From assembly GCA_008632985.1 (NCBI GenBank), contig QPGO01000051.1, positions 310,001-352,178 of the forward strand: 42,178 bases of DNA, given 5' to 3'. Positions 1 to 34,358 of this stretch are shown here, piece by piece (position 1 is the first letter of the stretch; every line of letters starts with the position of its first letter). The notes under the pieces were generated by a model that was not told the origin of the DNA, ran no database searches, and saw nothing but the letters and a program-made list of their open reading frames with translations. Made by a program: the position numbers and the translations under genes. Origin of the DNA: Psammoneis japonica (taxonomy: Eukaryota).

Positions 1-84
1 GTTGTCCGTTGAGCCTTCTGGAACAACTGTGGCTCAGTTGAGACTTCAGGATTGGGCAGCTCCTTCTTCTTGGGCATCTCCACA

Positions 85-1803
85 TCATGTTGGACAAATC
101 CTGGCATCCATTGGAATGCACATGGATGACATTTGCAGACTGCAAAGCAGAGCATCACAAAAGACCACATGGATGTCATGCTGCATGCCGACAAAATGCA
201 CAAGGCTTCTGGATGCACTTCCAATGCCACTCGGATCTGAATCTTCTTTTGCATCAGTTTCCCTCTGATGATTGGTTTTAAATGGGACAGGACTCTTTGT
301 GAATGACAAACCAACAATCCACTGGCCCATTGGTTCAACAAGTTGCACACCAAAGCACAGCCCATGAAGATCCGATTCGATGCACTCTGGGCCAAAGTGC
401 ACTCTTGAGAGGCTTGGGCAGTGCCAGAACCTTGCACAGAAGCATCCCAAGATGTCATTGGCATTGGAAGTGCAACTCTTGGATTGGCTTTGAGCAGCAG
501 CAGTGGCACTCTGAGTGTTTGCATCGGCAGCTCCCTCTGGAGCTGAATGATTGGCAGTTTCATGAGTGGCCCAGCACCCACATCTGCCACACCAATGCTT
601 GGTCACACCATTGGAGACTCAAGCATGAGATTCTCCATGTCTCAGAGGAATCTCACAAGGATCCCTTTGAGTTCAAGCAGCCTGGCATGGCCAGCAATTG
701 CAGCAATCGCCACGACCACAACCACCTCCACCCCAATCTCCATGACCACCACCACGTCCACCATGGCCTGGGTTTCCACATCCACTGCCACCACCTTGAC
801 TGTTGTTGTTCCGGGGTTGAGGGCAGCTTGGATGGATGTGGCCTCATTGACCACAGTTGCAGCAAACACAATTGTCTGCGCAGTTTAGAGAAGTGGCAAA
901 TCTGGACTTGCCTGCATTTGAAGAAGTTCATTCTTCACAATCATCCACCAAACTTGTGTGTGACTTGTTTGCATGCACAGTGAGATTGCCGTGCATGCAT
1001 CTCATCAAATCCACATCAACTTTGTTGAAAGAGAGTCACAAATTGAATCTAAAATGACTCGAGAACTGTTGATGTTGCAAGACCACTGCAAATGATCAAA
1101 GCAGCATCTTCGGGAAGCTTGTGATGGCCTTCTTGGCATCTGCACAATTCAACAACCTTTGCAGCACAGTTCTTGACATTCTCTCCTGGCTCTTCCTTGA
1201 GTTTCACAGCCTTGAGTTTGTCCACCACCATGCACAGAGCCCACTCAGTTGATGAATGCAACTTGTTGGCAGTGACAAGCTTGCAGACAACGGGCCCATG
1301 CGTGGGTCCACCAATGTGCTTCTGGGTGTCACCGTGTGGGGTGACAACCAACCAAGTTTAGAAAGAACTGTTTGGGCCAAAGCAAGTTTTGATGATCACA
1401 TTGGCCACCCATTGTGAGCGACTCTTGCAGATCCGACAAGCTGCAATCCATCACGAGATTCAACTCTTGAGGTGCCCCAGTCCTCGGGTCTCTCCTCTGG
1501 ATGCAGAGCGCGGAATCCGTGCCACTCATGAGAACACATTTGCCAACAGAGTTGGTCCAACTGATGAGAGTCACCTTGCAATCCTTGCCAGTGTCAATCT
1601 TTGACTCCAAGCCTTTGTGACAGCAAGAGACAATTGTTGTTGTGTGACAGAATGACATCGGACGTTGACATCTAGGTCCACAAGCCATGGCATGTGGACC
1701 AGTGATTCTCGGACCATCGGTCCAAGTGATGTGCCTCAAGAAGTGGAGAAGTGACCTTGAGATTGATCCCCAAACTTGGCACTTGAATCATCTGACGTGT
1801 CAT
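85..1803 (-). pseudogene. gag: Fragmented gag-like ORF of the Copia element
   Basis: Fragments lie in several frames: HITWTDGP (cf. AWTGGxP), KLKAVKLKEEPGENVKNCAAKVVELCR, a Gly/Arg-rich linker near 700-770, and HWCGRCGCWATHETANH (zinc-knuckle-like). Multiple frameshifts and stops. Confidence 0.65.
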
Positions 1804-1937
1804 TGTTGCCAAACAAACTGGCGTCATGCCGACAAGAGTGTTTCTTGATCCTCCAGAACAATCACTCATTTCGGAGAATCAGAGGTCTTGCTTCATGTCA
1901 ATTTGCAGACCAGTCAATTCAAAGCAATGACAACACT

Positions 1938-1950
1938 TGGGCTCACAACC
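1938..1950 (-). promoter_or_regulatory. Primer-binding site complementary to the anticodon arm of initiator tRNA-Met (Copia/Ty5 type)
   Basis: The minus strand reads GGTTGTGAGCCCA, which is GGTTATGAGCCC with one TA->TG change. It lies between the putative LTR and gag. Confidence 0.65.
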
Positions 1951-2637
1951 ACGGAAGTGAGCTAGATGACAGCATGAGCTGGGGCAACAACAACTGTCCA
2001 AAGCAGACATGTGTCAACGGCAACCGCTGTCAAAGAGATCCTGATTCTCGCGAAAGTCAAAATCTGCAAGAAGTGAGAGAAAGAGAAGAAAGCTTCAAAA
2101 GTGACCCACGAGTCTGAAGAGAGCAAAGATGCCAATTCCATGAGAAAGGAAGAAGCAGATCGGACAACCGGCCTGTTCCAGCTCCAGGTGCTCCGCATGG
2201 GTTCGATTCCCATCATTTGCCCATTTTTAGGTTTGGCGCAATTAACTTTTTCCAAATCCGTTTTTTGCCAAATTGAAGGGTGAGTGCACACTTTGCATGC
2301 ATTTTTGGGTGTACACTTGCCTTTTGATTTTCGAAATGATCAAAATTGAAGGAGTTCAATGCGCTGAACTGTGCAGAAAATTGGCCTCTCGCATGATGAA
2401 AAGCGGATCACCTGGAGCTGGAACAGGCCAACCGAGGACCAGAAGGTCATCAATGGAAAAGGAGCCAAACACTCACAAAAGTCAACTGTGAAGTCCCGTG
2501 CAAGACTGGCCAACTCCCATGTGTGACCGACCCATGTCATGGATCAGAAACTGCAGCTCTTGTTGCTTGACCCTCTTGCACTGGTCTGCGTGTTGTTGTC
2601 CAGTTTTGATTTCTGCAAAAATTCAAAACATCTCACA
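1951..2637 (-). repeat. Candidate 5' LTR (interrupted by a MITE at 2170-2429)
   Basis: Starts TG on the minus strand and ends at the PBS. The terminal CA is not clean and the second LTR is outside the window. Confidence 0.4.
2170..2429. mobile_element. MITE, 27-bp TIRs, 4-bp TSD AACC
   Basis: GGCCTGTTCCAGCTCCAGGTGCTCCGC (2170-2196) matches the inverse of 2403-2429 with 1 mismatch. AACC flanks both sides (2166-2169, 2430-2433); a 6-bp TSD CAACCG also fits. Confidence 0.85.
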
Positions 2638-2639
2638 GT

Positions 2640-3160
2640 TGAAGACAAACGCTTTCATTTTTTCAAAATCAGGCAAGTGGGGGGCTGCAGTGCTCAAACA
2701 GCATGGAATTCCATGCTGCGCACTTTGCCGAGTTGCAAATCGGCATCACATGGTGAAAGCACGGCAAAACTGGCAAGTGGCAGAGAACATCCAAGCGACA
2801 ATTGGAAGGAAAGAGTGATGTTGTCGAGCTTGTCCTAGATGCATGCTTTCTCATGTAAATGGAAACTTTTGTCCAGAGTTTTGTTGTAAGAACTGTTTTG
2901 GACAATTCCCAAGTTCACCACGGTGAAGCACGGGAAATCACTTGCCAAATTGCCGCGCAAATCGCCGGCAATTGTCTCTGTGATGGCAGAGCTGCAGTCA
3001 ACGAATGACTTCTTTTCCGACATTGAACTGGTTTGTCATGTGATGTGTCAAAGCACAGCTGTCATTTAGCAGAGTGTTCTTCCAATTGTTGAGTGTGCTC
3101 AGAAGCAGTTGTGGCTTTTCATTTTTACAACACGGTGAGGCACGCACGTAAATTCATACC
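2640..3160 (-). mobile_element. Mutated, internally deleted non-autonomous relative of the DNA transposon at 36137-41526
   Basis: 2640-2975 aligns in inverse orientation with ~41190-41520, sharing GCGATTTGCGCGGCAATTTGGC and TGAAAGCACGG. 3121-3160 (TTTTACAACACGGTGAGGCACGCACGTAA) matches the inverse of 36198-36235. Confidence 0.75.
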
Positions 3161-4830: not shown

Positions 4831-5059
4831 TGTAATACATGTATATGGACGGAGTGAGTTGATCGAAAGCAGTAAAATGATACAACTTAGAGCGGCGGCG
4901 GCAGCGGCAATGCCATCAACGTGATCATCGCACAGTGAAGTGCGAGATGTTGTGTGCGTGATGCGCATGCATAAAGGTTGAAATGTGTGTTTTCGTTCCA
5001 ATTCTGAACAATTCTGTTTTTTGCAAAAACGTATTGCATTTTTGTAAAAAAACGAAATT

Positions 5060-6220
5060 GCACGCTTTTTGCTGAGCGCCTGTGCGTGTGTCTCGTTGTT
5101 GTCTGCATGAAAATGATGCGAGGGGTTGTTGTCATCAGCGTCCGAATGCAAAAACACAACATCATGATGTCATCAAATGGGTCATTTGCCATGGCACTTG
5201 TGGTGACCCAACAGCATCATTCCCAGCCACACCAACACAAAGCTGAGCAGCATCGTTGTGAGAGCTCTTGTTGGCTGGCTGTGCCACACCGCCAACAAAG
5301 AGTCAAGTTTTTTGCACCAGCAAACTTCTCGAGAGTTCTGCCCCAACGTCAAGTTTCTTCTTGAGCTTTGCACCAAACTTGAAAGTTTTTTGAGATCTGC
5401 TCTCCAAAGTCAAGTCTTGCTCCAAAGGAGCCAAAGCGAAGCAATCCACACAAGAAACAAGAACAGCATCGTCTGACTGGCCGGCCTGTGCNNNNNNNNN
5501 NNNNNNNNNNNNNNNNNNNNNNNNNNNNNNNNNNNNNNNNNNNNNNNNNNNNNNNNNNNNNNNNNNNNNNNNNNNNNNNNNNNNNNNNNNNNNNNNNNNN
5601 NNNNNNNNNNNNNNNNNNNNNNNNNNNNNNNNNNNNNNNNNNNNNNNNNNNNNNNNNNNNNNNNNNNNNNNNNNNNNNNNNNNNNNNNNNNNNNNNNNNN
5701 NNNNNNNNNNNNNNNNNNNNNNNNNNNNNNNNNNNNNNNNNNNNNNNNNNNNNNNNNNNNNNNNNNNNNNNNNNNNNNNNNNNNNNNNNNNNNNNNNNNN
5801 NNNNNNNNNNNNNNNNNNNNNNNNNNNNNNNNNNNNNNNNNNNNNNNNNNNNNNNNNNNNNNNNNNNNNNNNNNNCTGCCCACCAGAATCAAGCCATTTT
5901 CTTCAACCCAAGAGCAGCGCGGGCTCAGCTTGACAGCATCGTTTTCTTGTTGTCGCTCAAAGCAGTTTGTGATGAGCCCCATGCTGCTGGCACCAGAAGC
6001 AAGAGCTGCTCTTGAGCCCTGCGTGCAGCTCAGCCTCTGCCCTGTTGGGGTTGCTCTCATGAAGAGCCAAGGAAGGCTCTCCTGCACACCAACAACAAGG
6101 TGCAAAAGCGTCAGGCAGAAAGAGAGAGAGAGCACGTGCTCTGCCAGCTGCCCCCGCAGCACCGCACTCTTTCCCACCCTCGCTCTGAGGACCCTGCCAC
6201 CCAGGCAGCAGCTGTGCTTG
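5060..6220. mobile_element. Unclassified TpA-depleted repeat remnant spanning an assembly gap
   Basis: Same TpA/CpG-poor, TG/CA-rich composition as the other TE blocks; no recognisable domain. Confidence 0.45.
5492..5875. other. Assembly gap (run of N)
   Basis: 384 N characters. Confidence 1.
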
Positions 6221-10253: not shown

Positions 10254-10577
10254 GGTCTCTCGGACTTGATTGCAAAATGGAGGGATCAAATGCGATGGTA
10301 ACTGCGCCGCAAAAAAAAATGGAAGCTTGTGTGGCAACCACCACCGCATGACTCTTGTTTCAAATGCTGGTCATTCAAAAGGTCATCGAAAATTTAAAAT
10401 ATCTTAGTGGTGCATTACAATTTATGTTAGGTCATTGCCTTCGACAGGAAATGTCTCCTTTGGAGATCCATGATAAAATCGGCATTGAATTTCCGCTGCG
10501 CTGTCGCAGTCCCGAGTTTTACCGCAGTCAACAGCTCACCTCGACCAAGAAGGTGCAGGATGGACATTGCGTTGCCA

Positions 10578-12786
10578 CGGGGAGTTGCATGAAATGTCAA
10601 AATTTTCGTTTTTCCCTGCAAAAACGCACAGAATGTCAGAGAGACCTGCCTGCACGCGAGTGCCGCCACAGTCTGCACGATGCTGCGAAAGTTTGTGCAC
10701 TTGCCACCAAAACGCTGCTCGCACTTTTTGCCAGGGGACATGCCACAGACACACAACATTGCATTTGGCTGCAGGACAAATCCTGTGTTTTTGGGGCTCT
10801 GTTTGATTTGACAAAATGTCGAAATTCTGTGGAAGGTTTCTCAACAATTGCCTTTTTTCCCAGCCAGTGCTGAGACAAAATGCCCCAGAAATGCAGGTGG
10901 TTGTGTCTTCACCAGACCCCGCCAAAATTTCTCGTTGAGAAGACAACCCACTGGATGGAATGAGAATGTTTAAATGATGTTGCACAGTGCGTGAAAAATG
11001 ACAACCTGCACTCACTCAATTGGGTTGGCATGGTGACATCAAGCACTGAAATGAACAACAAAACGGTGCGACAATCGATGATGACGACACCTTCTATCGG
11101 TGCCTGCCTGTGCGCTCATTTTCTGCTGCACTCAAATTTGTATGTCCACACATACATCATGAGCAGTTGCCATGAGCACATCACGTTGTCACGGCGTTTC
11201 TGCACGCATGATGATGCACATGGCACCGCACGACTGCAAGAGACGCCGTTGAGTTCCCTTCTCGATCCCGAACTCCGATTTGAACCAGTCACGACTGTCC
11301 CAACCTCATCGCTTCGTGCGATGGTACAGATTTCAAATTCAAACCCGCCAAATGGCTCCAACCGCCAAAACCAAAAAAGGCCTCTTGGGGGGGACTGGGG
11401 CTAGAGACTATTTTGGATTATTGTCGTTCAAGATTCCCTTGCATGCCGTTCCAAAAGCGTTCCAAAAGCGTTCCAAAAGCGTTCCGAGAACGTTCTCATG
11501 TGCACCAATTCGCGCGGAAATCAAACTTTGGAGCCGGTCAATTCGCCAATGAGACATGTGATGCATTGCAATTAGTGCGCTGTTGTTAGAACTATTTGAG
11601 CATGGCACAAAAGTGTAAAAGTTTAACAGATCACATGGATTTGTTGCAAAAAGGTACACCCGTCAAAACAGGTTTCTATTTTCTCTAAGAAAAAGAACGG
11701 CTGGTGGAAGTCTCAACAATTTTGAGTTGCAGTGGCCACAAGTTGAACCACAAGGGTGCATTGTAACTGCCAGCATTGTTTGACAACAAACCATGTCTGT
11801 GACAACCGCCAATGGCTCCAACACGGAAATGCCATTCGACGAAATAGGCATTTCGTCATTCCCGTGTTTCCACCATTCCGGGACCGCACCAAAAGCGTTC
11901 CGAAACCGCGCCAAAAGCGTTCCCGAAGGGAATCTCTCTAAAAGGCCCAACATCAAAGCATTGTTTTTAGACGTTGGAAACGAATGAGAACCCTGCCCGA
12001 CAATGCATGGAACCATCAATCCACCTGCGGCAACAAAAACACTGCTGCATGGCAACAGCGCGGTGTCAATCATTTTAGCACAGTGTAAAATGTCAAATGC
12101 GCAACACACGACTGCACTGCTCACCACACAAATGCGCCTGCCCAGAGCCACAGTAGATTGTCTTGCAAGGACAGTCATTCAGAGGCAGACAAGATCGGAA
12201 TGGATTTGGAACCAACAGGTTCGCGTCACACTTGAGCACTTTGCAGGACATGCAGTGGTGTGCGAGTTGTGGGGCCTTCTTCAAGATGAAGGCAACCTTT
12301 CTCATGGGTTCCTGCCCACTCACTTGTTGTGTGCCCTTGTTTTCTGAATCTGCATTGTTCTGAAACCATTTTGCCGGGAATCTGTGGTGGAGCACACGAA
12401 GACACGACAAGAAAATGGTTTTGTGTCGGAACAGAGTTAATTGTAAATCTGGACTTGTTGCGTGCCATCATTCCAATCTCTTTTTGAAAATCAACGTACT
12501 GGCATTAGCTTCACCATCTTGTCATCTTAGATTGACTGGTGACACAGGTTTGTGGATGACAATGGCATGCACGGTGACGGTGGACGGCACTGACTTTCGC
12601 TTCGCATCAACGAACCATCGCCGCGTTCGCCGTTCGACCCCATCTTCTACCTGGTGTCTGGTGTTCGCACAGCCCAAAATGCAACATTTTGGGGGATGTG
12701 TAAAATGAATTGTCGTCACGAAAAAACACGAAAAACCACGAAAAACAGGGAAAAACGAAAATTTCGACATTTCATGCAACTCCCGG
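10578..12786. mobile_element. Non-autonomous TIR DNA transposon (~2.2 kb), probably Tc1/mariner-like with a mutated TA target duplication
   Basis: 39-bp TIR GGGAGTTGCATGAAATGTC(A/G)AAATTTTCGTTTTTCCCTG at 10580-10618 and inverted at 12746-12784. CA flanks both ends (10576-77, 12787-88), as expected for a TA TSD after TA->CA change. Confidence 0.75.
11447..11485 (+). repeat. Minisatellite (CGTTCCAAAAG) x3.5
   Basis: Three exact 11-bp units plus a partial unit; CAAAAGCGTTCC recurs twice at ~11890-11925. Confidence 0.9.
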
Positions 12787-13229
12787 CATCCAGCATGCAG
12801 CGGTTCAGCAATTTGGCAAACACCGACAATTCATGCCAAGCTTTCAGCCAGCATGTCTGCAACATGTTCTTTGTGCTTGACAAGAAGAAGATCCACATGT
12901 TGACGCGACGAACAAATTTTTTGTGCCTGTGGTTTTGCACTCTCCACAGATGCCAAAATTTTTCAAAAGCCAGCCAAGGCAGTCACTGCAGCTGTGACTC
13001 CAAACAGTGCTCTGATGCTGGTTCATTTTCCAGTGTTGCCAAGAACAAAGCCATCATCATTTGAGGTTCTTGACAGTCAAATTTTTCAGCAGCCATGGGG
13101 GTCTTCCATGTTTTTTTTCTGTTGTGCTCTTTGTCTCTTTGTTGCACTGGGCACCACCACACAACTCAGCCAGCACCAAGATCTGTTGTTTGCGTGTGGT
13201 TTGCTCCTCTGTTGCAACTTGATGTTCAA

Positions 13230-16200
13230 TGAAAAGAGGCTCTCTCTTCAAAACAAACTTCTCACTGAACCAGCCCCTTTTGACAGTGTGCAAAGCCGCG
13301 AGCTTGGGTCCTTTCCTTCTGCCCAGCTTGGCTTGGCTTGCACAATTTTGACAAATTCCAACAGCAGCTCAACTCCAACATCAACTCAGATTGCTGTTGT
13401 GAGTCCATCTTCACTTCATTCAATGCCGCTTTGAAGCTGCAGATTGACAACAAGCATGCTGCAAACACTTTTTGGGGTGTCAAGTTGTCTGGGCTGATGG
13501 CCCATGCTTGCACATTGCACTCCATTTTGGCCACAGCAGCAGATTTCTGCTGGCAAACACCAAATTGTCTCCACTCTTTGCACAGCTCTTTCTTGCCCTT
13601 GCTCTGAAAATGCATCTTCTTTTCTTTGTCTCTTGCTGCAGAAGATTGCACAGAGGGTTTTTTGTGTGTCACGCTTGTCCAAGTGCTGGTGCCAATTTGC
13701 TTGTTGGCTTTGTGCGAAGGCCAATGTGGACAATTGAAGCCACATTGCAACAACTGCAAAAACACAAGATGTGCCCAAGAGCAGCAGCACATGAGCAATG
13801 ACAACATTGCAGAAAAAGACATCAACAACACCCGCAGGACTCGGCGCACACCAGCAAAGTCAAAAAAGCCACAGGAAAGGCAAGAGGTCAGAAGTGTGAC
13901 ATGGGAGCAAGCAGCTTGGAGCAAACAATGACAAACACTGGCACTTTCCTTTCACAAATTGACAAAAACAAAAAAAGACAAGAAACAAAGTGCCACAACA
14001 TTGTGCACACAGGCGAGCAAAAATGGAGGCATTGTGCCACACTTGCCAAAGAAAATGCAACAAACTGACAACTTCTCCACTGTCTTCTGCCAGGAATGTT
14101 GAAGACGCGTTCCAGGTCTAGGTGGGACCTCGTACTACTGAACTGTGACATCGATAGTTTTTTGAATCACGTCGTATGTCGCGCACGTAGATTTCTACGT
14201 GATTTTTTCGATATTTTGTGTCGTTTTACGGTACACTTATTGAGCGATCCGTCAAAAAACTTTTGACATTTTTTGTTACAGCGCGATTCTATAATGTCTT
14301 AAGAGTCGCGTAGGGCAGGCGCATTTGCAAAAACGTCGAGTGGCAAGAGGCATAATTGTACCAAAAACTTGGCCGTTTATTTGATGTTGAAGATAAACAT
14401 ATCCAGTAATTAAATTCTCGTACTACGGAGCTCGCACGTAGAATTCTACGGGCCCAATGTCACACGGAGTCCCACCTAGGACTGGAACCCGTCTGAAACA
14501 CAAAAGATTGGAACACAATGCAGTGCCAGCACAGCCAAGAGATCGCCAAGACGCAAGGCAGCCAAGTTCAAAACAAATCTGATCAACAGCCCAAGCACTG
14601 TGAGACCAAATTTCCTTGAGTCTGGTCTCATCCCACTTTGCCAATTTGGGCAATTGTTGAAGTTGATTTGCTCAAAATGAAAGAGCACTCAACAAAAACA
14701 CAGGCTTTTCATTGAGCAAATTTCAACTCTGAACACAAGCAACCACATTTTCCAGATGAGGAAGGCAATGGCACAGATGAGAATTTGCCCCAGCTGCAGA
14801 TGCAGGTCAGCCAGTGACTGCACAAAAAGAGCTCCAAATGTCTTGCACATGTTTTGAACAGAAAAAGTGCAGGAAGAGCCCTTCAAGACACCCTTGTGGA
14901 GCACAAGCAATTTTTGCTGGTCAAGGGCATGCTGCCTTAAAATTTGACATGTCTCACAAGTCATTGTGTGCACAGTGAAAAATGCACATGTTGTGAGCCA
15001 ATTTTGGACAACCAAGTTTGTGGCTGTGCCAAAAGCATCAGATGGGTCAGCTTCATTCAGCAGCTCAATGAGGCCAGGGCCAAGATTGATTGTGTGCGTG
15101 ACAATGGCGCGCCCCTCTGTTGCAACCCACCGTGCCATTCTTGCTGCATGGTGAGCCGACTGACAACAACAATGAAGAAAAGATGCTCTCTTTTCAAAAC
15201 AAACTTCTCATTGAATTGCTCCCTTTTGACAGACAACAAAGCTGCAAGCTTGAGTCCTTTCCTTCCATGATCCAGTGTTGGCTTTCACAATTTTGACAAG
15301 CCCCAACATTGGCCCAGGTTTTGCTGCTGTGGGTCAAGAATCTGCACTTCATTCAGTGCCACTTTGAAGTTGCGGATTGACAACAAGCACTCCATTTTGG
15401 TCATGATGGCCGCAGATTTCTTCTGGCAAACACCAAAAATCATGGCCGCTGTCTGTGCAGCTCTTCCTTGTTGCTGCTGTGAGAATGCACCAGCTTTGTC
15501 TCTTGCTGTAGAAAATTGCAGCAGAGGGCTTTTTGTGTGCCATGCTTGTTTGAGTGCTGGCGCCGACTGGCTTGCTGGCTTTGTGCAAAAGTCAACATGG
15601 ACAATTGAAGCCACATTGCAACAACTGCATCATTGGTGAGATTGGCCACAAAGACTCACTTGTGACAACTCGCGGCAGGAAAGCTTGGCGAGGTTTCAAG
15701 CCTCTAAAAATTCTTGTGCAGCACGCAGCCAGCCAACAAAGCCCAGTTTCACATTTCCAACTCACACCTCAGCCAATCCTCCCATGAGATCCGCTCTTGC
15801 ATGAGCTTTGCATCAGGATGAAATGGAGGATGGCTCATTGTTTTTGTCACAGAGTTCTTTGATGTTGCCAACAAAAAGAAGCTTGTTTCAAAAATGCTGC
15901 TGCAAATTTCTCCTCTCTCCTTGAGCCATTTTGCCACTGCAAAACAACTCTCTGCATTTCAGGCACTCCCAATGCATTGCTTTTTGAAGTTTTGCTCATG
16001 GATCCAAAATGCCATCCTTTGGCAACCAAACCTTTGGGTGTGAGCAACTCTTTGCTGTTGGGAACAAGGTGACATGGAGCCACAATGCTGCAAGATCAAC
16101 TTTGCAATGCCCAGCTGCAGTTCTCAAGGTGTTGCCTGGGGGACCAACAGACACAGCCAGAGTCTTCAGCTTGCTGTTGTCAGGTTGGCTGGCACTGCTG

Positions 16201-17310: not shown

Positions 17311-17419
17311 GAAGAGAACAGAGTTTTAACCTCCACTTGCATGGCAGCAGCCAAGTCAAGTGAAAGCTCATCAGCAGGTCAGACCAGCAAGCTGTTTGCA
17401 TGACTTCTGCCCAAGGCAG

Positions 17420-18640
17420 GCATCAGAGACTCTGGTCACAACCAGAAAATGCTGCTCTTGTGTTTGCCGCACAAAGCACTGCACATCTCTGGGTGCTTGC
17501 AGGCTGACAGAAGCCTTGGTTTTGAGTGCTGCAGGCACAAAGTGCACTTCTGGATGTGGCGCTGACTGAAGCCTTGGCTTTGAGTGTTGTGGGCAAAAAG
17601 CCTGCTTTTTCCAGCTGTGTGCAGAGCTTTGGGGCAGGTGAGCTCTTGTGTGTGAGCAGATTTTCTTGGCGCAAACTGTGAGAAAAGCTCTTTTGCAGAG
17701 CAGGAGAGTCACTTTGAATGTCAGCGAGAAGCTCTTGGGGCACGTGAAGTTTTGCAGCATGTCAGAGTTCTGAGTGGATGGAGTCAGTGGGCAGCTGTTT
17801 TTGAAGCGACATGGCAGGAAAAGACGTTGGCTGCAAGATCTTTGCCACATGACAGTTTTGCAGCCAGAGGCTGTCTTGTTGGTTCAAAGCTCCCAAAAAC
17901 TCCACAAGCACCCACCAGAGATGCTGCACTCCTCCACACAGCTGGCATTGTCGTGCTGCTGCAACAACTCTGGCAACTTGACAGTGTGAGACCATGCAAC
18001 AAGCCACAAGCAAAAAACAAAAAACAAGAAACGGTTGCCAGAGAGCAGCCAAGAGGCGCTGCAGCGACCCTGACGAGCTGCTAAAAAGTGTTCACTCATC
18101 TCACTTTTGCTCAAACCCCAAGTCAACTGCTGAGTCAATTTTGACATCTGCTGCTCTTTTAGCAGGAAGCTCTCTTTTCCTTGTCAATCTCTTTCAAAAC
18201 AACCTTTGGCACAAGAGCCATCCCTGTTGAAGCTTCAACTTGACATGGTCTTTTGTTGCTTGATCTCACCACTGGCATTGGAACACATCACTGGCCTCAA
18301 CTCTGGCATGCTGGTCATGGCAATGTTGCTTGCTTTCTGCTTGTGCTTGCATTTCCATCATCTCCTCCTTGGGCCCAGCTGTTGCACGCCTCGCCAGGCC
18401 CAGCCATGGCGCGAGACACTCTCTGGTCACAACCAACAGTTGTTCATGCTTGCCACCACATTGAACATGCTTCTGGGTGTGGGCTGGCTGTGTTTTGTTG
18501 TGATTTTTTAAGTGCTGCAGCAAAGCATGCTCCTTCTGGGTGTGAGCAGAGCTTTTTTGCAGAGCGGGAGTTGTTTTGAACATGAGTGAGGAGTTTTTGG
18601 GGTGGGTGAAGTTTTGCACATGGGAATTCTGAGTGGGAAG
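17420..18640. repeat. Second pair of diverged direct repeats (~17420-17780 and ~18415-18640)
   Basis: Shared CTCTGGTCACAACCA, TTTTGCAGAGC, GTGAAGTTTTGCA and TTCTGAGTGG in the same order. Confidence 0.6.
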
Positions 18641-19972: not shown

Positions 19973-20122
19973 GGAAGAAAATCCGGAATTTCTTGCTCCC
20001 CGACATGCAATCATCGGCTTGAGGCTTGCCGAAACAGCAATGCGATAGACTCTAATAGCTATCAGAGTAGCAACTGAATCTGAAGAGCAACCCCCAAAAG
20101 AGGTGTACGACTGAAGCATCAG

Positions 20123-24871: not shown

Positions 24872-25619
24872 TTTTTTCTTCTACGTATAACTCAGCTATC
24901 AACTGTGCCATTCAATCAGGCGTATCCTGCAATGGGAGATCAAACGGTTCGGGTTGCAATAATAAACCCAAAACAGGCAGAGCATTTTGAGTCATCGCTC
25001 ATACGTATCCCAGACGACTTCATCGTTGGAGATACCGCAACCGCACCGCGCGCACCCGCGCTCTCCTTTTCAACAAGACTCCCTCCTCCTCACCATCATC
25101 CATCGCTTTCTCCACCACGCTGCCTCCCGTGCTGCTCCCTTCCCTGATCACTCCCTGGCCACAGCCTTCCTTCCAGCATCGCTTTGCGACCACCAATGAT
25201 CCAGGTGTCGCACTGGCCGTCAAGATTTCTTGAAACAAAACCCGACATTTTCTCCCTTTGATCCAAGGTCGTGCTGATTTGTCAAGTCAGCTTTTCTGAA
25301 ATGTCCAACAACAAACATCTGTGTTCCTCAATTTAACTGTTTAACCCCCCCCCATCCGACAAGCCTCATGTGTGTGTTTGGCTCCATTTCAATTTCTGGA
25401 TCATGCGTCAATCAACTTTCTGGATCAAAGTCGCCGCCTGCATCATCAGCCAATCTAGACTCTCCAATTGTTTTCTCAATTTTCTCTCCCTGCCCATTCC
25501 ATCCTTCCTTCCAGTCCATCCGCACGTTGCATCTCCACGTTTCTGCCCTCACTGTGTCCCCAAGTGATTGTTGCTGCACCCACTGTTTCCTTTCGATTCT
25601 CTTCTCAACTCCTTCGTCC

Positions 25620-25830
25620 ATGCACATGTCGGCCATGTCGTCTGATGGTCTTGTTTGTCCATGGTGCAAACGAACCGGTTTCTTTTCCGAACGTGGCCTC
25701 AGCAGGCACATCGCAACCAACTGCCTCCATTCCGCCATTTCCACCAAGTCTTTTGGTTGTCCTCGTTGCGGACAATGTGGGTTTGACTCTGAAAACAACG
25801 TGCAGTGTCACCTGTCTCGGCACTGCACCG
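25620..25830 (+). pseudogene. Remnant ORF with two C2HC/C2H2-like zinc fingers
   Basis: CPWCKRTGFFSERGLSRHIATNC and CPRCGQCGFDSENNVQCHLSRHC, followed by Ser/Pro-rich and then acidic low-complexity sequence. Confidence 0.6.
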
Positions 25831-26279
25831 CAGCATCTGGTCTCCACCCCCCATTGACACAGTTGCGCCGCACAACCCAATTGTCTTCTTCATCCGGCGG
25901 AGCATCTCTTTCCTCTCATCCTCTGGATTCTGCCTCCGTGGCTCCCTTGGATCCAACACCAACAAACCCAAATGTCCCCATTGCCGTGTTCCCTTTTCCA
26001 ACATCGCCCTTCATCTACAGAAGCACTCACCCTGCCATGAAAAGGAGGAAATGTCCCTTCGCCTGCATGCTGCATCTTCTGCTGCCGCCCGTGCACTTCC
26101 CCCTCCAGACAATGAATCACTGGATGACCATGATGAATCACTGGATGACCATGATGATCATCACTGACAGGATTGTGAGCAACAAAATTGTTTTCTGTGC
26201 TTTTGAGACAGCTGGGGTGACCCATTTGGTGAGATCATTCAGCAAACAGGATCGATGAAGATCACATCACACATGACTG

Positions 26280-26410
26280 TTTGCGAAAAAAACATCTGTG
26301 GTGCACCCAACAGACAGACTGCCATTGTCAAAACATCACATGGGACCATTTACAAAAAAAACATCCGTGGTGCACACAACAGACAGGCTGCCGTTGGCAA
26401 CACACATTTG
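26280..26410. repeat. ~68-bp tandem duplication (possible subterminal repeat)
   Basis: AAAAAAACATC(T/C)GTGGTGCAC(C/A)CAACAGACAG(A/G)CTGCC occurs twice. Confidence 0.7.
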
Positions 26411-26529
26411 GCGAAAAAGCCATTTTCGTTGGAAAGTTGTGGGTGCAGACTTTTGCTGGATTGGGTCTGTTCCACTTAAAGAAAAAGACTGGGTGCCATT
26501 TGATTTGGTAGAACAGGCATTTTCAGAGA

Positions 26530-27300
26530 ATGGCGCGGAAGTGTTCTGTGAACGGATGCCGGAAATTTGCCCGTTGGCCAACAACGTCATGCCAGAAACA
26601 TGGCAAGTTGCTGGCACACCCGGACGAAAAGAAATCTCATGTCGTCAAAAGCAAGAAGGCGGGGTCCAAAGAAAGAGAGCACCAGGAAAGAAAAAAAGTC
26701 TGCTTGCAAAAATTCAAAACACCACCACCCCTGCTCAACAAGATGACAACACTGGCAAACAAGGCACCAAGCAGCAAGGGAGAGAAGGAAGGACACCATT
26801 TTGTCGGTGAGTTTGCCATTGACAAAAAGGACAAGGCGGAAGGTGTTGGGTTGGCAGAAAAAATGTTGGAGTTAATTTCTGGCTTTCCCCTGGCAGGTGA
26901 TTTGAGCAGAAAGACATCCCGGCACACAGTGGCAAACGCTCCTGCTTCAAGTTCAAGATCTGGCTTCTGGTCAAAGGGGGAAATTCATCGCAATTACGTG
27001 GAAACCAAATTGTCACCTGGCAACAAAATTTTCACCATGTTTCTGTTCCTTGATGACACAACGGAGCACAATGGTGCAGTGGAGATGTGGCCGGACAGTT
27101 GTGAGGTGACATTGAATGAGAAGGAATGTGAAAGACACTTGGTTGGGTTGGGTTTGGAAAAACAATTGCTGGTTGGAGAAGCAGGCACTGCATTTGTTTT
27201 TGATGCAAGAATGTTGCGCCGAGCTTTGCCCAACAAAACGAGTTCGGATCGAAGGAACATGGCATGTCCAGTCCATAATTTCAACACAGCAAGCATGTGA
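26530..27300 (+). pseudogene. PhyH-like 2-oxoglutarate/Fe(II) dioxygenase with mutated metal ligands
   Basis: IHRN (expected HxD), TMFLFLDDTTEHNGAVEMWPDS, GEAGTAFVFDARMLRR (expected LLHR) and PNKTSSDRR. N-terminal CSVNGC..C.KH zinc-binding motif and a basic region. Confidence 0.7.
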
Positions 27301-27424
27301 ACACAGCAAGCGTGTGAACAAGCAGGTGTTGGAACACAAAACTGGTGAAGCAGCAAGTCAACACAGGCAAAAGTGGGTTTGTGAAAAGGGCCAGTTGACA
27401 ATTCATTGCTTGCACAGATGACAG

Positions 27425-28170
27425 TCACATTGTGAACAAAGTGGAACTGCAAAGTTGCCCAATTTTGGCAGGCTTGAATTTGCGTTTGATGTCAGACCCC
27501 AGGTCGTTCCCAGTGGAATGCCTTGTCTCCACGGCAATGTCTCTTTTCTTGGTGCACTTGTGAAGTGGGTGCCTGTCGACACCGTCTCCCCACAATGGAT
27601 CATCTGGACAGGCAGGAACAAAGAATGCTTCATGCCTCCATTTGTGCATGTGAGCACAAAACATCGCATCCAGTGAAATGACAACAGTGCCTTCAGGACA
27701 CTCGTTGGACAGCATCTCCTCGAGTTGGTTCTGTGTCGCGTTGTTGTCAAAAAGCATTCGCCCATTGCAGCTGTTGAAGAAAATCTTTAAGTTGTTCAAA
27801 CGGTGCAACCAACGCACAGCATTGTCTTCGGAGAGCAAGTGTCCTGATTTGTCAGGGTCGGAAAGCGACTGGCGTTGTTGTGCCATGTGGCATTGCACCA
27901 CTGAGAGCCAAGATCATGACGGGGATGGTGGAACTCGATGCTGCAGGCATTGCAGGCAGGAACAAGCAGACGACAGGCAATCGCAAAACCGCCAACACCA
28001 CCACCAACGTCGAGGAAATTAAAACGGCTTTGAATTTGTGCCGCAAAGAGAGCGGGGCTACAAATGACCTCGGCGGAGAAGGCAAAGCTTGCCGCACCAC
28101 CATGAGATTCCACACCACCACCAGCAAAACGACCAATTTGATCATCAATTGGTGGCATGTGATTGCAACA
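27425..28170 (-). pseudogene. DOT1-like class I SAM-dependent methyltransferase, frameshifted near 27850
   Basis: ESHGG (cf. YGE), FLDVGGGVG (motif I, 27991-28017), SIEF..PRHD, then in the next frame KIFFNS..LF (cf. IFVNN.F) and PEGTVVISL (cf. GxRIVS). Order and spacing match the DOT1 catalytic domain. Confidence 0.6.
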
Positions 28171-28889
28171 GAGGGAACACGCGCTCCCATGACGGGAACG
28201 ACTCACAACAACCACATCTTGATGACAATGACAAACTTCAGTGGACATTAAAGTGGGTTGGAAAATTTGGGCAACAGAGAGAGCAGTTGGACAAACATGG
28301 TGTCGGGGAAGCAGAGGGAATGACCCATTAAGACAGGGATGACAAACAGGAGGTTTGACACGACTCAATGCACCAAATGAAGCAGATGTTGCATCCAGAA
28401 GGAAGTGCAATGCATGCATCAATGCAAGGAGACATGACACATTGTTTGGCATTGATTTGGATGACATGGCAATCTTCATTGGTGCATTGGATTGGCTGAC
28501 AAAGGCACACAATTCAAAACAGTGAAACGTTGACAGAAATGCAAACATGGGGTTGGGAATGAGCACTCAAAAATGATGCAAAGACCTGTTTGAATCAAGA
28601 GAGGACACGCGAGCAATGGCAAAACCGAGAAAATCACATGCAAAGTGCGCTCTTTTTGCAACTTGCCTTTCACAAAGCAACAGGAAAGGACGGAAGTTCC
28701 AAACAAGAGGAAGCCATTGGGAAGGTAAAAAAAATGGAGGACACAGTTCTCACAGGAGCAACGGAGGGAGGAATTGCAACTTCCAGCGGCAAGTGAGACC
28801 AAGGAAGGACATGACAAAGAGTTGCTGATGAACTGACACAACTGTTGGATTGATCTGTGTGGTGTCACATGAAGTCACCATGAGCTGCG

Positions 28890-30014
28890 GTGGCGGCCTT
28901 GTTGCATGCACAAAGAAACGAACATGGGGAATTGAACAGATTCCAGCACGCAGGTGGCGATTCAAGTTCGGCGGTGACTCCCACAGAGGGATGTCTTGTG
29001 TTGGATCGTGCACTGGCGGTGGGCAAGAAATTGACAGCATCGATGTTGACTGAGGTCATCAATGAGAGTGTTTGGCCATGTCGCAAGTTCACAATCTTTG
29101 ATCATGAACTCGCCGTGGGAGGAGATTGCATGAAATTGGTTCTGCAGGAGCCAAGGAGCATGGCGTCTTCACCAGAGAAGTTCTGGGAAGAATGCAAAGA
29201 GGTGCTCAGGACCAAACTCAACTGAAAGAGGAACAATGTGCAGGACAACATTGGGAGGAGAATGACAGGCAAGCAGATGTGTGCGTGCCGGTGATTGTGT
29301 TGGAGGCAATTGTCTGGCGGGATGAGCGTCTCTTCCTTTGCTTTCATCTGCACAGCCGCTGCTTTAGAGGGATCGCTGGTGGCTTGCGAAGACTTGACAA
29401 AGGGAAGAAATGACAAGGACACATGCACGTGGTTCTTGGAAACTGTGGTGCCAACGGTGGTGGGACAAGTGCAGTTTGGCAGAAGCACAACCGACATGCT
29501 TCAGGAATGGCTTTCGGTTTCGTCAGAGGCGTTTGCTCTGCTGGTGCACTTGAGCTGCTGCAACAAGGTGAAGGACACGGCAGAGAAATTGGAAAAGGAA
29601 GAAAATGTTGCAAGGAGAAGAAAGCCAACTGTGAAAGATGCTGCTCCCACAAAGTGCACAGCGCAGGTGGTGGGGGAATCGGCAAAGAGGAACCAAGGAT
29701 GGAGCAAGGAGGGGATCAAGAAGTGCAATGATCTGTGTCAGTGGGTGGTGAAAGACAGAGAGAACAACCAGGGATTCGGTGCATGGTTCAAGGAGAGAAG
29801 GCAAGAGAAGACAAACTTGTCTCAGGAGGAAAACAAGAAACACAAAAGAGAGGAAAAAAGAAAGGAGAGAGAGGAAGGATGGGCGGCGCCAATGGGAGAG
29901 GACCTGCCATTGCAGGCGGTGGCTGCAGGCAACGGAGCGGCAGCAAATGCCGCAATGGCCGCCAACCAACTGGTGTGCAAACGTAATTTGAAACAAACAA
30001 TAAAATCTGGATGA
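28890..30014 (+). pseudogene. Decayed diatom transposon accessory gene (S-EAF..L / KYT / GWS.EG..YN.L..V..DR type)
   Basis: VWPCRKF, FWEECKE..LN*KRNN, SVSSEAFALL, PTKCT and QGWSKEGIKKCNDLCQWVVKDR. Internal stop at 29223-29225, a probable intron at ~29270-29350, and expected Tyr residues appear as Cys/His. Confidence 0.6.
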
Positions 30015-31879
30015 GCAAAAATTAAAAAAAACATTCTGCGACACGGTTTAGATGCAATGACGTGTGGCAATTGGGAATTTGGATTTGAAAATGGCACAGC
30101 AAAGAGATAAAATGTAGGACGAGTTGGTGGAAAAGGAGGGCGGGTTGCAAGCAGCAACATTTGTGTTAAAAGAACGAGAAACCCCAAATGTCAATTGGGG
30201 TGCAGGTCAGCATCATGTGAAAGGAATGATCACGCTTAAAAGTGAGAAGCGACTCAGGTTTTAGAAGCTTAAAAACTCGTGCAGTTCTCACATTGTGTTC
30301 AAGGAGAGAATTGGCTCATGAGTTGACAATGATCTGGCATTAAAGTCAAGAAATGCCCAGATTGTGGCAGACGGTCAGACCCAGATTGTTGGCATCCCAG
30401 ATGCATCTCACAGCATCAAATTGCCATCAGGTTCTGCTGTTGCTCTTCCACACTGTTTTCGGCTCTCCTTGTCCTCTTGGCACAACCCTCATTCCACCTT
30501 GCACCTTCGCACGATCTTCCATCACTGTGCTCCGGTCCTTGCTTCTGCTGCCACCCTTTCTCCTGCCTCCCCGGCTGCTCCAGTTAAGTCAGCTGTTCTT
30601 CCTGGCCTGGCTTTCCACCTCTGCCACGATCATCAACAGCAACTGGCTGCTTCTGCTCTTCCAATGCTCTCTCCAATGCCTGGGTGCAAAGGCCAACAAG
30701 TCATTTTCCAATGGACCCAATTTTTTGCAGGAGTGCTTCAATCTTGAAGTTGCCAAATTGGTCAATCTGTGCAACCTGTTTTGCCCAGATGTCACAGGAG
30801 GTTGACAAAACAGAGAAAGAAGCAGCTGTTGTTGTGAGGTTCTTGATGAGACCCTTTTGATGAACACACAAAGTGGGTTGACAGTTTTTGTGCCATGGTG
30901 GAGGAAAGGTTGTGGCCAAATGTGATTCTTTGTGGCACTGTGAAAAATGACAAAAGGGTGTTGATGAGGACGACTTGCCAGAACACAATGAAGATGTGTG
31001 GTCTGGTCATGAGAGCACTGTGGGGGCCATTGTGAAAAAGACGCCGGCCCAAATCTGGACATTGGAGACCACTTGTCTGAGCACCTGCAACTCCTCAGCA
31101 ATCACCTGGAAAGTGCAAAGAACATGGAGTTTTTGGAAGTCAATGTTGGCTTTGTTTTTTTGCATGAAGACAATGAAGAGAGTTCCCACTGTGACAACTG
31201 CAATGATGAGGACTCACAGGCAACAGTTGCTTTCCCACTGTTGGGGCCAGAAAATCAATCTCAGCTGTGGTCTTTTTTCACATTGTCGCCAAAAAATCTG
31301 AAGCCCTGTTGAGATGCAAGATCAGCTTTCCCTTTCAACCAAGGAACATCATTTTCACAAGCAAAAATGGTTTGAAGGAAAATCCGCAGCATCGCAACAT
31401 GGCCCCACCCGCCACCAACACAGGTCATCTGCAGACTTTTCTTGCAACACAACTTGCTCACAGGCTCATCCAGGGAAATGCCATTGTGAGCGTTGTCTGC
31501 TCCAGCACAGGATGGTGCTTCCACTGCCCAAGCATGGTTTCAGCTGGCACCTGCAAGGCCACATTGAGTCTCCCATGTCCATCCAAAGACAACTGCATGC
31601 TCACACTGACATGGAGTTCCATCACATGACTCTTCATGTGCAGCTCACAGCTGAAATCCTGTCATCTCATGAGCAGAGTGGGCTGCCAAGGCCCATGAAA
31701 AGTCCTCCAGTGCCTGCCCAGGCTGCTTGTTGGGTCCCCTGTGACAAAACAGAGTTGACCATGTCCTTCCAAAGACAAATGGTGAACTGGAGACAGCTGC
31801 TGATGGGCCCCTTTGCTTTCCAGGTGGTGTGGCCAGGCAGAGTCCGGCCAGCATGTCAGAAGGAAAAGGGTCTGCCTCG

Positions 31880-32650
31880 GCGCATTGACACAACACAAGT
31901 GCTCCAGCAGCACCCAACTGCGGTTCTTTTTGGGTCCCCTGTGGGCACCCACTGGTGGAGTTGCTCATGTTCATCACAAAACAATGTTGGACTTGCACTG
32001 CTCCAAAAGCGCGCCCCTTCACTCTGTGGGTGTGGCTGCTGCGTGCCAAACCCTGCAATCTCAGGAGGATCGGGGCACCTGTCAACACAACACTGCCATT
32101 CCAACTCCTCACCATGGTTCATTTTGGGTCCCCTGGCACTGCCTGCTCTGCCCGTGCCCATCACAAGACAACATTGGACTTGTGCTGCTCCAAAAGCACA
32201 CCCCTTCACTCTGCAGCTGTGTCCGCTGTGCCAAGCCCTGCGCAACATCAGGAGGGCCAGGGGCCCTGTCAACACAACATGTCAATTCCTGCACCCAACC
32301 ACAGTTTATTTTGGGTGCCCTGGCACCACACAGAGTTGCCCACGTCCACCACAAGACAACATTGGGCTTGCGCTGCTCCAAAAGCACCCTGCTGTGCCAA
32401 ACCCTGCAATCTCAGGAGGACCAGGGGACCCATCAACACAGTGCAGCTGTTCCAATTCCCAGCAATGGCTCTTTTTGAATGCCCTGGCACCCAGTGGAGT
32501 TGCCCAGGTCCATCATAAGACAACATTGGACTTGTGCTGTTCCAAAAGCACATCCCTTTGCTCTGTTTGTGTGGCTGCTGTGCCAAACCCTGCAACCCCA
32601 GGAGGGCCAGGGGCCCCGTTGACACAACGCAAGTGTTCCAATGGGTGCTG
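31880..32650. repeat. Tandem array of about 4 diverged 163-188-bp units
   Basis: The anchor CA(T/C)CA(C/T)AA(A/G)ACAA..TTGG.CTTG..CTG.TCCAAAAGC occurs at 31972, 32159, 32347 and 32510; GTGCCAA(A/G)CCCTGC is in each unit. Confidence 0.85.
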
Positions 32651-34358
32651 TCTGACCCACAAGCCCTGTGGCAGGGCCAGGCACATGTTCGTCATTTGTG
32701 CTCAATTCTCTGGTGTGATTTCCCCACATGCTTTGCAGCACAAGGTTCTTCAAAAATGTGTGGAAAACACATCACACCAGAGCTGCTTCAGAGCCTCTGA
32801 ACAGGGTGCTGGTTGCCCCACAAGCATCGCTGTGGCAGCATCTCACACTTGGGGTGTGTGAGATTTGCAAGTGCCACAGCAGCTGCAGGCCAAAATGGAG
32901 ACTCTGCCTCTCTGCAGCATTGCAGATGTTGGGAGCTGGCTGCTCCTCCTGCTTCTAACTGTGCTGCCACACACAGCCCTTTTGTGGACCATCAGCTTTG
33001 CTTGGCTCACAGATGGTCAAAGTCAGCTGTCTCAACATTCAACAGCTGCTTTTGAGATTTGTTGTTGTTTGCACATCTTGAAGCATGAACAAGAACAAGT
33101 GAGTTGGGTGTGCCAGGAAAACACACACCACTGTGCCATTGCTGCGCTGCTTCCAAAAATGTCAACTTTCTCCTGTGAGACTTTTTTGTTCTGCACAGAT
33201 GGGCAGACCCACAACAAACATCTGCACAAGAACACACCCAGCCACTCTCTTGTCAATCCTTTGCAGAGCCTTTGCAAGCAGCCACACAAAGCTCTCAGGA
33301 GCCAATGCCTGCCCTGGGCTCCAGGAGCCACCCTGCACATGCTTGGCACTGCTGCATGGCATCACAGTGCAAGGTTTCATTTTCTGGCTCTGTCTTGTTC
33401 AACAGGACTTTTGGGTTTCAAACAAGAAGAGCTCTTTGCCAGATCTGCAAAGTGCAGTGGTGAGTGTCAAAAAATTGTCTGTGTGGCAGGAGTCTCTTGG
33501 CTCTGGCGACAAAGTGAACAAATTCTGCTGGTCCCACCTTTTCTCAGGAAAGAAGATGGGACCCACAATGATGCACACAACAAGCATCCTCTCTACATCA
33601 CAATGGCTGCAAAACATGAACTTTTTGGTTGAAGAAGAGTGCCATGAATGACCCACCTGGAGAACAGCTGCCCAGCACAGCAGCCTGGCAGAGATCATCA
33701 TCAGGAGCACACATTGACCATCAGAATTTTTGCTCAAGAAATCACGCCACAATGATTCTGTGAATCGGGAGTTGAGCACCTCCCGGGCTGAAAAAGAGTG
33801 CACACTGTTTTTGAAGACCCCACAACCCATGTGTGCTGTCGGGGTTGGTTGTTGCGTCGTCAGCGTTGAGGAGTCAGCAACGGCCGTGAGCCGTGAAGGG
33901 AAGAACGCAGGTCAGATGCAGGTGTCAGTTCCTCTGGCTGTCTGCGCTTCGTTCTTCTGCATCTGCTCTGTTCTGTCTGCTCTCTCCTCAATGCTGAAGG
34001 GGCGTGGTGCATGGCATGGGCATGGAGCACTCAGGACTTTCGTCGGCACGTGTGGTTGAGGTTACCAAAAGATTGCAAAGCAACATGATGGGCTTAGGCT
34101 CTCTACTAGAGAGAGGTCTGCTTCACCAGCAATGAAGCGTTTCATTGGCACTGCATTGAAAATAGTTCAGCAGTTGTTGCCAACACAGATTTTCAAGAGC
34201 ATTTTTAATTCAGAGAAAAAAGATAGCGCTCGACGCAACAATGTATTGGTAGTCTACGACTGAACCGCATGGCTGGCTCTCTGAATAAAGAGAGTCGCTG
34301 GCGGCTAGTATAACTGATAATCTCTTCGTGTCTTAGTTTTCTAGGTTCATCTTCTCCC

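Follow-up and report, generated by a model that had tools for sequence, protein, structure and literature searches.

The closest described counterpart of the pattern considered here is found in the chlorarachniophyte Bigelowiella natans. According to the main text of a preprint (bioRxiv 10.64898/2026.01.13.699255), 231 of the 302 nuclear mutations in its mutation-accumulation lines fell in integrated nucleocytoplasmic large DNA virus (NCLDV) and virophage regions; 230 of those 231 were A>G or T>C changes, all on TpA, and the rate was about 1000 times the background, in some lines only. The same text reports 124 clusters genome-wide that are depleted in TpA and enriched in CpA and TpG, and proposes an ADAT2-like protein as the deaminase; it makes no mention of CpG, diatoms or flanking bases. 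The subject of this report is a 42,178-nucleotide stretch of the diatom Psammoneis japonica (contig QPGO01000051.1, positions 310,001 to 352,178; the whole stretch is hereafter the window), four blocks of which have lost nearly all their TA dinucleotides. An initial annotation, made from the letters of the window, had read these blocks as transposable elements (TEs) in which TpA is converted to TpG or CpA, and had been aware of no described pathway with this signature; the same signature has in fact been measured in B. natans, as that preprint's main text shows.

For diatoms, about 6% of the Phaeodactylum tricornutum genome is methylated, as cited in a mutation-accumulation study (PMC6604790); the portion of that study drawn on here names CG, CC and TG as mutagenic contexts and does not mention TpA. 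Literature searches found no report of TpA to TpG/CpA hypermutation in diatoms. The signature is already in print for a rhizarian and, as far as these searches reach, is described here for the first time in a diatom.

The TA- and CG-depleted blocks are a real and striking feature of the window. In the intervals picked out by the initial annotation (1-3150, 5060-6220, 10550-18850 and 25050-34100) the observed/expected (o/e) ratio of TA was 0.07, 0.00, 0.12 and 0.06, respectively, compared with 0.54-0.65 in the four intervening gene stretches. CG stood at 0.39-0.66 in the blocks and 0.90-1.06 in the gene stretches, and TG and CA at about 1.65-1.7 and 1.12-1.29, with nominal values of 2.4-2.5 in 5060-6220, which holds undetermined letters (N). 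When pooled and strand-symmetrised, the 20,071 nucleotides of block sequence contained 84 TA, or 0.4% of dinucleotides; at the frequency found in 20,059 nucleotides of gene sequence (4.3%) about 865 would be present. The pooled o/e ratios of blocks and genes were 0.06 versus 0.62 for TA, 0.38 versus 0.95 for CG and 1.69 versus 1.17 for TG/CA. The nearly TA-free, CG-poor blocks and the ordinary composition of the adjacent genes were thus as the initial annotation had described them, with the right coordinates, and its count by eye of about four TA in 31321-33600 was exact (32307, 32516, 32956 and 33594). AA/TT was not depleted in the blocks. A mild deficit of AT and excess of GC dinucleotides was seen, because TAT becomes TGT and TAC becomes TGC, and the overall GC content was 0.486 in blocks and 0.470 in genes.

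All 30 of the TA-free runs of at least 250 nucleotides fell within 1-2835, 5046-6220, 10521-18508 and 25034-34062, the longest of them being 1,721 nucleotides. The borders were profiled in 300-nucleotide windows, and at five of the seven visible ones it took one to three steps, i.e., 150-450 nucleotides, for the TA o/e to go from about 0 to 0.5-0.7 or back; the change was more gradual at the borders near 3000 and 18600. The blocks are as follows.

1..3000: block 1, TA-depleted (TA o/e 0.07, CG 0.39), cut by the window's left end; TA-free runs extend to 2835, with TA back to normal by about 3150
5046..6220: block 2, TA-free, with no TA in 791 called bases
5492-5875: assembly gap of 384 N in block 2, the content of which is incomplete
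10521..18508: block 3, TA-depleted (TA o/e 0.12, CG 0.42), a repeat nest filling the space between two genes
25034..34062: block 4, TA-depleted (TA o/e 0.06, CG 0.39), between an SFT2-like gene and a glycosyltransferase gene

The assembled letters are backed by reads, in that contigs built from a single public DNA run (possibly the assembly's own source) agreed with the window, for example over 1,522 nucleotides with 8 differing letters and over 1,059 nucleotides with 1. Single read-derived contigs spanned the right border of block 3 (16234-21298, in a contig of 5,068 nucleotides) and the left border of block 4 (21300-25159). Diverged paralogues within the blocks differ from each other by swaps between TG and CA, which makes systematic read error an unlikely source of the pattern. 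Inside the blocks the read contigs departed from the window at 27 listed places, 15 of them with CG against TG/CA and 4 with TA against TG/CA; so few of the latter are expected once TA has been exhausted.

The direction of the change, from TA to TG or CA, is supported by four independent lines of evidence: mass balance, repeat pairs, a decayed protein and the loci of its relatives. From genes to blocks, TA fell by 3.9 percentage points and CG by 3.0, while TG+CA rose by 6.6, so that the sum of the four dinucleotides was almost the same (23.80% in blocks, 24.06% in genes) and at least about nine tenths of the missing TA came back as TG/CA, i.e., as transitions. Recoding the sequence as purines and pyrimidines recovered repeats that were invisible to ordinary BLAST, and self-BLAST of the recoded window aligned one copy at the edge of block 1 with a copy of normal composition over 333 columns (82% identity).

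2643..2974, plus strand: short repeat at the block 1 edge, hypermutated copy
41193..41521, minus strand: copy of the same short repeat with normal TA, the polarity reference

The normal copy has 20 TA, of which 7 correspond to CA, 7 to TG and 1 to TA in the hypermutated one. The test set beforehand by the initial annotation, enrichment of A>G at TpA over other contexts, gave 7 of 12 sites at TpA and 5 of 52 elsewhere in an ordinary alignment (p=0.0007), and 18 of 40 versus 21 of 148 in an alignment guided by purines and pyrimidines (p=9e-5). ApA was spared (2 of 25, compared with 7 of 12 for TpA), and when the roles of the two copies were reversed no TpA excess was seen. A second pair gave the same direction: 6 of the 7 TA in a copy at 18541-19159, which straddles a block border, are TG or CA in its partner at 17677-18313. 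What these comparisons record, almost only as transitions and with A>G concentrated at TpA, is substitutions and not de novo mutations.

The third line of evidence is an open reading frame (ORF) in block 4.

28884..30011, plus strand: decayed ORF of an all-helical protein family without a name; 376 codons with two in-frame TGA stops, no Tyr codon and no frameshift

Two TGA stops and no frameshift over 376 codons indicate that point changes outran insertions and deletions. A word-based protein search with this ORF gave no match; an exhaustive search found homologues in 144 representative clusters at E<=1e-3 (best 2.7e-47). The ORF contains 0% Tyr and 4.3% Cys, the 144 homologues 2.8% and 1.6%. 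At the four columns in which at least 30% of homologues have Tyr, three residues of the ORF are Cys (TGC) and the fourth is Phe. Its Cys residues 181, 225, 226, 258 and 281, all TGC, fall on columns where Tyr is the commonest or second commonest residue (the commonest at 225 and 226) and where only 0-3 of 112-143 homologues have Cys. The initial annotation had noted systematic Tyr to Cys/His changes in decayed peptides including WPCRKF and KCNDLC, both of which lie in this frame, and for this one protein the observation was borne out. His320 (CAC) falls on an Arg column. The fourth line comes from the relatives' own loci, on five short metagenome contigs, where the TA o/e is 0.60-0.97; the family is therefore not TA-free by nature.

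No Pfam family was found in the 17 homologues scanned, the structure predicted for the family was all helical (pLDDT 79) with no match in the PDB at E<=0.001, and no relatives were found in viral contigs; one relative adjoins an ORF for an RVT_1 reverse transcriptase (metagenome contig L005). Three homologues (P0004, P0007 and P0014) have His at the family's Tyr positions in the K-Y-T and Y-N-E-L motifs, and might represent hypermutated copies from other organisms. Across the 144 homologues Tyr content varies continuously and is not clearly bimodal; 13 have less than 1% Tyr, with slightly more Cys and His, which is no clear proof of hypermutated copies elsewhere.

Both strands of the blocks are affected. 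On the plus strand there are 1,995 TG and 2,246 CA, the two being about equal in every kilobase, and the 2643/41193 pair gave TG and CA at 7:7. With the gene stretches as baseline, the survival of TA varied with the nucleotide immediately 3' of the A (chi-square p=1e-16): in fully depleted parts it was 0.009 before T, 0.025 before C, 0.063 before G and 0.14 before A, and in partly depleted parts 0.21, 0.27, 0.50 and 0.83, in the same order. No ATAT is left, TTAA survives at 0.48, and the residual sites are mostly TTAA, TTAG/CTAA and GTAA. The loss of TA runs ahead of the loss of CG. In 45 of the 62 block windows TA was at or below 0.06, and 22 of these keep CG at 0.3 or more and 5 at 0.6 or more; no block window combined CG at or below 0.3 with TA at or above 0.3.

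A>G changes outside TpA, again before a pyrimidine, were observed at conserved columns of the decayed ORF (Asn224 to Ser, AAC>AGC, 29553-29555; Asp299 to Gly, GAT>GGT, 29778-29780), and four changes that, within the high-copy family, are unique to the window's copy (25847, 25902, 27394 and 28184) follow the same pattern. They may reflect a weaker side activity.

The content of blocks 3 and 4 bears both on the origin of the affected DNA and on the timing of the loss, and comprises the following parts.

10580..12784: element with 39-nucleotide terminal inverted repeats (TIRs), 97% identical, with one CG/CA difference
13231..15035, plus strand: repeat copy 1, a paralogue of 15177-17276 (69-81% identity in four BLAST segments)
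14096..14493: insertion of about 400 bp resembling a miniature inverted-repeat transposable element (MITE), with terminal inverted repeats of about 20 nucleotides; normal TA and CG inside a TA-free copy
15177..17276, plus strand: repeat copy 2, carrying a further repeat at about 15835-16501 with about 14 times single-copy depth
17677..18313, plus strand: TA-free duplicate copy, the partner of which (18541-19159) straddles the block border
25173..30508: high-copy repeat with about 40-75 copies that are at least 90% alike; both ends approximate (depth-bin edges)
26512..27297, plus strand: PhyH-like (2-oxoglutarate/Fe dioxygenase) remnant within the high-copy repeat (Pfam PF05721, E 2.6e-5)
30509..34062: TA-free, very CG-poor, single-copy stretch (depth 49-80; TA o/e 0-0.13, CG 0-0.5)
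31883-32644: internal tandem repeat of 30509-34062

Much of the block sequence can fairly be called mobile-element debris, and the TE origin asserted by the initial annotation is only partly supported. In its favour are the high-copy repeat (summed word depth of 2,110-4,348 over 25173-30508, compared with 50-62 for single-copy parts), the TIR element and the paralogues, and the same three observations speak for foreign origin. On the other side, the 146 block ORFs of at least 80 amino acids gave no match to the Pfam models for reverse transcriptase, integrase or transposase and contained no viral domain, the decayed ORF has no viral relatives, and 17169-18502 and 30509-34062 are of single-copy depth. 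The Pfam matches among those 146 ORFs were the PhyH-like remnant, which had no match among PDB sequences, and a weak methyltransferase. Two further details of the initial annotation could not be found again: a primer-binding site altered from TAT to TGT (no match to an initiator-methionine-tRNA-type pattern with either TAT or TGT) and a TA target-site duplication changed to CA, which was not located. Nor is the loss restricted to repeats, as had been claimed, since the single-copy stretches 30509-34062 and 17169-18502 are as TA-free as the high-copy part and most of the loss seems common to the copies in two families.

The interior of the TIR element (10971-12701) shows partial TA depletion (o/e 0.14-0.43, about 0.2) with CG near normal (0.5-1.16), and this element may be a younger target caught mid-way. 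The duplicates 17677-18313 and 18541-19159 are old and detectable only after purine/pyrimidine recoding. Transitions between them far exceed transversions in every context; this could reflect real extra transition pressure or the way in which the alignment was discovered.

The whole is best explained, with a probability of roughly 0.6, by targeted enzymatic editing of DNA at TpA acting together with ordinary CpG decay. The blocks would be non-genic DNA, largely mobile-element debris, that fills intergenic space in the diatom's nuclear genome and has been rewritten by two transition processes. One would be fast and TpA-specific, turning A:T into G:C on both strands, with TG or CA as the product according to which strand is attacked; it would act best with a pyrimidine 3' of the A, on TAT about as well as on TAC, then on TAG and then on TAA. 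The other, slower process would convert CpG to TpG/CpA, as from deamination of 5-methylcytosine in methylated repeats. The fast process may correspond, in a diatom, to the locus-targeted TpA hypermutation of B. natans, with an enzyme editing DNA on which the cell has set a mark of foreign or silent material. The enzyme would most likely be a TadA/ADAT-like deaminase that converts adenine in DNA to inosine, which is read as G; a TA-preferring DNA adenine deaminase was among the initial annotation's candidates and stays a best guess, with less confidence than the explanation as a whole.

A number of observations weigh against targeted editing. Its polarity is drawn from two small repeat pairs and one protein family, and as TA is self-complementary, the letters alone cannot tell an attack on A from an attack on T. 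The one public DNA run that contains the stretch may be the assembly's own source, and is hence not independent of it. If some 230 ancestral TA had decayed separately in each copy, several hundred variable places would be expected in the 5.3-kb repeat alone; over the whole 20 kb covered, an alternative letter at 10% of depth or more occurs in only 146 places (130 of them transitions). Between the paralogues 13231-15035 and 15177-17276, CG is paired with TG/CA 12 times and with CG once, and the 1,128 aligned positions include 21 double differences of CA against TG. About 18 of these 21 are predicted by a model of CpG decay only, fitted to the pairing counts (CG/CG=1, CG/YR=12). These paralogues were considered as a test of TA loss after duplication and lend it no support, as the CpG-only model accounts for them. 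Given the few variable sites and the CpG-only fit, most of the TA loss may predate the duplications of both 25173-30508 and the 13231/15177 pair, which weakens a repeat-induced view; dead, TA-free sequence would then have been amplified to dozens of copies. The MITE-like insert at 14096-14493 keeps its TA (o/e 0.75-0.78; CG 1.1-1.8) inside a TA-free block and has no counterpart in the paralogue (16800-16854); it could be a young insertion, or else targeting could follow elements and not domains. It was also tried in a three-way alignment for polarity and is not of the same family as the 2643/41193 pair. Finally, what the analysis shows is the depletion with its sharp borders, its direction and TpA specificity, the use of both strands, the 3'-neighbour effect and the lead over CpG loss; the targeting and present activity of the fast process are inferred, as are its enzymatic nature and the identity of the enzyme.

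The TA loss that the 40-75 copies, and likewise the two paralogues, seem largely to share would follow if the elements had been TA-free when they arrived or spread, for example because selection favoured evasion of a TA-directed nuclease, transposon or editing system, and had never been hypermutated in place. Such an inherited composition is unlikely. A TA-free coding sequence cannot encode Tyr, and the decayed ORF has no Tyr, bears Cys on Tyr columns and is interrupted by stops; its relatives' loci have ordinary TA; sequences as unrelated as the TIR element, the PhyH remnant and single-copy DNA are alike TA-poor; the mass balance fits conversion; and the 2643/41193 pair shows the change in place. 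Equally unlikely is an attack on thymine, in which a TET/JBP-type or other enzyme would modify the T of TpA in silenced DNA, to 5-hydroxymethyluracil (5hmU) or a base-J-like product, with miscopying or misrepair as C to follow. The self-complementarity of TA makes every result fit T to C as well as A to G, the 3'-pyrimidine preference being equally a 5'-purine preference of the T (RTA), and T before A is where 5hmU is concentrated in dinoflagellates and base J in kinetoplastids. However, 5hmU pairs with A and its repair is not known to give clean T to C changes; the authors of the B. natans preprint favour adenine deamination in its main text, themselves without a test. Hardly to be credited is an artefact of assembly or base calling, for which it can be said that the sequence comes from one sample, maybe the assembly's own: read-derived contigs match the window and bridge the block borders, and the diverged block paralogues differ by TG and CA.

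A process without a dedicated enzyme, in which a spontaneous TpA lesion or a repair bias is raised in heterochromatin that is compact, replicates late or is poorly repaired, would sit well with the CpG decay in the same blocks, as in silent methylated chromatin. Near-total erasure (o/e 0.06), borders sharp within at most 300 nucleotides and a strong 3'-neighbour rule suggest an activity that reads sequence, and the TA-normal insert inside a block and the B. natans rate, raised about 1000-fold and switched on in some lines only according to the preprint's main text, also make this explanation improbable. The initial annotation had listed Pol-eta-like error-prone patch synthesis, begun by mismatch repair at deaminated methyl-CpG and mutating nearby A:T, as a candidate. 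TA and CG are lost in the same blocks and their losses are correlated over windows (Spearman 0.50), but the candidate fits badly and is very unlikely: TA loss is always ahead, with 22 of 45 TA-free windows keeping CG at 0.3 or more and the reverse seen in none, ApA is spared, and the lost TA is recovered almost wholly as transitions. Pol eta hits WA (AA and TA alike) and gives many transversions. Still less probable is A-to-I editing of element transcripts by an ADAR/ADAT-type enzyme, with reverse transcription carrying the changes into DNA. The base that ADAR favours 3' of its edited A is G and not T. Both strands were hit, with TG and CA roughly balanced in each kilobase and at 7:7 in the repeat pair; the TIR-bounded element and single-copy DNA are affected too; and no reverse transcriptase was found among the block ORFs. 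For such editing speak the relative of the decayed ORF that adjoins a reverse-transcriptase ORF and the U before the edited A, a usual ADAR preference according to the Discussion of the B. natans preprint (bioRxiv 10.64898/2026.01.13.699255). Biased gene conversion was considered and ruled out, as the change is dinucleotide-specific and CG falls.

The exon at 24076-24549 (minus strand) encodes a protein of the Got1/Sft2 family with a best identity of 72%, and its matches of named source were all diatom (Stephanopyxis, Cyclophora, Ditylum, Thalassiosira, Trieres, Pseudo-nitzschia, Phaeodactylum, Cylindrotheca and others); the closest match of an ORF of 1,086 amino acids was only 34% identical. 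The window is thus diatom DNA and not from Bigelowiella. Contigs from a further run (X2), labelled 'DNA?', skip 19400-19502 and 24550-24661, stretches that begin with CT and end with AC; these are thus GT..AG introns of 103 and 112 nucleotides in minus-strand genes, and X2 behaves like an RNA run. Its spliced contigs cover gene stretches only and leave the blocks without cover, which is not evidence of silence. A search for tRNAs found none, and an imperfect palindrome of 183 nucleotides (35886-36068, 77% self-complementary) was observed in a gene-side intergenic stretch.

As a second and deeper footprint after that of one rhizarian preprint, the blocks indicate that TpA hypermutation is not a curiosity of one lineage and may be widespread, and diatoms bring to its study transformable model species and a large ecological weight. 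Near-saturation, precedence over CpG loss and the 3'-pyrimidine rule are added to the B. natans precedent. The early loss of TA, the T-A-pyrimidine target and the action on both strands are handles toward the enzyme, and a naturally occurring editor of A in the double-stranded DNA of chromosomes, if real, would be of interest to base editing. There is also a practical consequence: TA-free blocks have TGA as their only stop codon and therefore contain long false ORFs, and homology searches on them fail unless transitions are discounted. A wider proposal is advanced tentatively, with the odds somewhat against it. Diatoms may possess an active DNA-editing immune system that reads 5'-T-A-Y-3' and erases TpA to saturation from DNA that is invading or silenced, ahead of and alongside CpG methylation; with that of Bigelowiella it might represent an old defence, common to Stramenopiles, Alveolata and Rhizaria and exerted through a natural DNA adenine deaminase, and the dead TA-free DNA could be amplified to dozens of copies.

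Among known systems, the blocks resemble fungal repeat-induced point mutation (RIP) insofar as dinucleotide-specific transitions ruin mobile DNA in place and leave sharp compositional islands. RIP, however, turns CpA into TpA and lowers GC, whereas here TpA is destroyed (o/e 0.06) and GC is slightly higher than in genes, so that the direction is opposite to RIP, as had been proposed; RIP also needs duplication and acts on each copy independently, whereas here single-copy stretches are hit and most of the loss seems common to copies. CpG decay by deamination of 5-methylcytosine is recognisable in the CG o/e of 0.38 with an excess of TG/CA and in the 15 of 27 read-contig differences that involve CG, but it explains only about 3.0 of the 6.6 points by which TG+CA rose and cannot remove TA. 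A second process beside it, converting TpA to TpG/CpA in discrete silent blocks, as the initial annotation had argued, is supported. The animal APOBEC3 and ADAR systems share a deaminase type of editing against invading nucleic acids and a dinucleotide context; they act on complementary DNA or RNA, on one strand, by C>U or by A>I in double-stranded RNA, unlike the change seen here in chromosomal DNA, in several kinds of element, on both strands and at TpA. In TadA/ADAT enzymes the target A follows U/T (U33-A34), and the natural TadA site, UACG, fits a preference for TAC; the natural enzymes act on tRNA, and adenine base editors were evolved from TadA. In the blocks, unlike in the TadA site, TAT is at least as good a target as TAC.

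The comparison with B. natans is the closest, taken from the main text of the preprint. The host there is a rhizarian and here a diatom (Stramenopiles). Erasure is near complete here (o/e 0.06), compared with a Rho of 0.45 for the NCLDV region; the blocks yielded no viral hallmark and a high-copy repeat is affected; CpG is depleted too, and the 3'-neighbour rule found here does not appear in that main text. The B. natans rate was measured directly, and the process is known here from its footprint. In both organisms the change is confined to TpA and gives TpG or CpA according to strand, and it occurs in separate regions of silent or non-host DNA, leaving the host genes next to them unchanged. 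Both carry a lasting footprint of TpA depletion with CpA and TpG enrichment, with TE-type domains among the depleted sequences.

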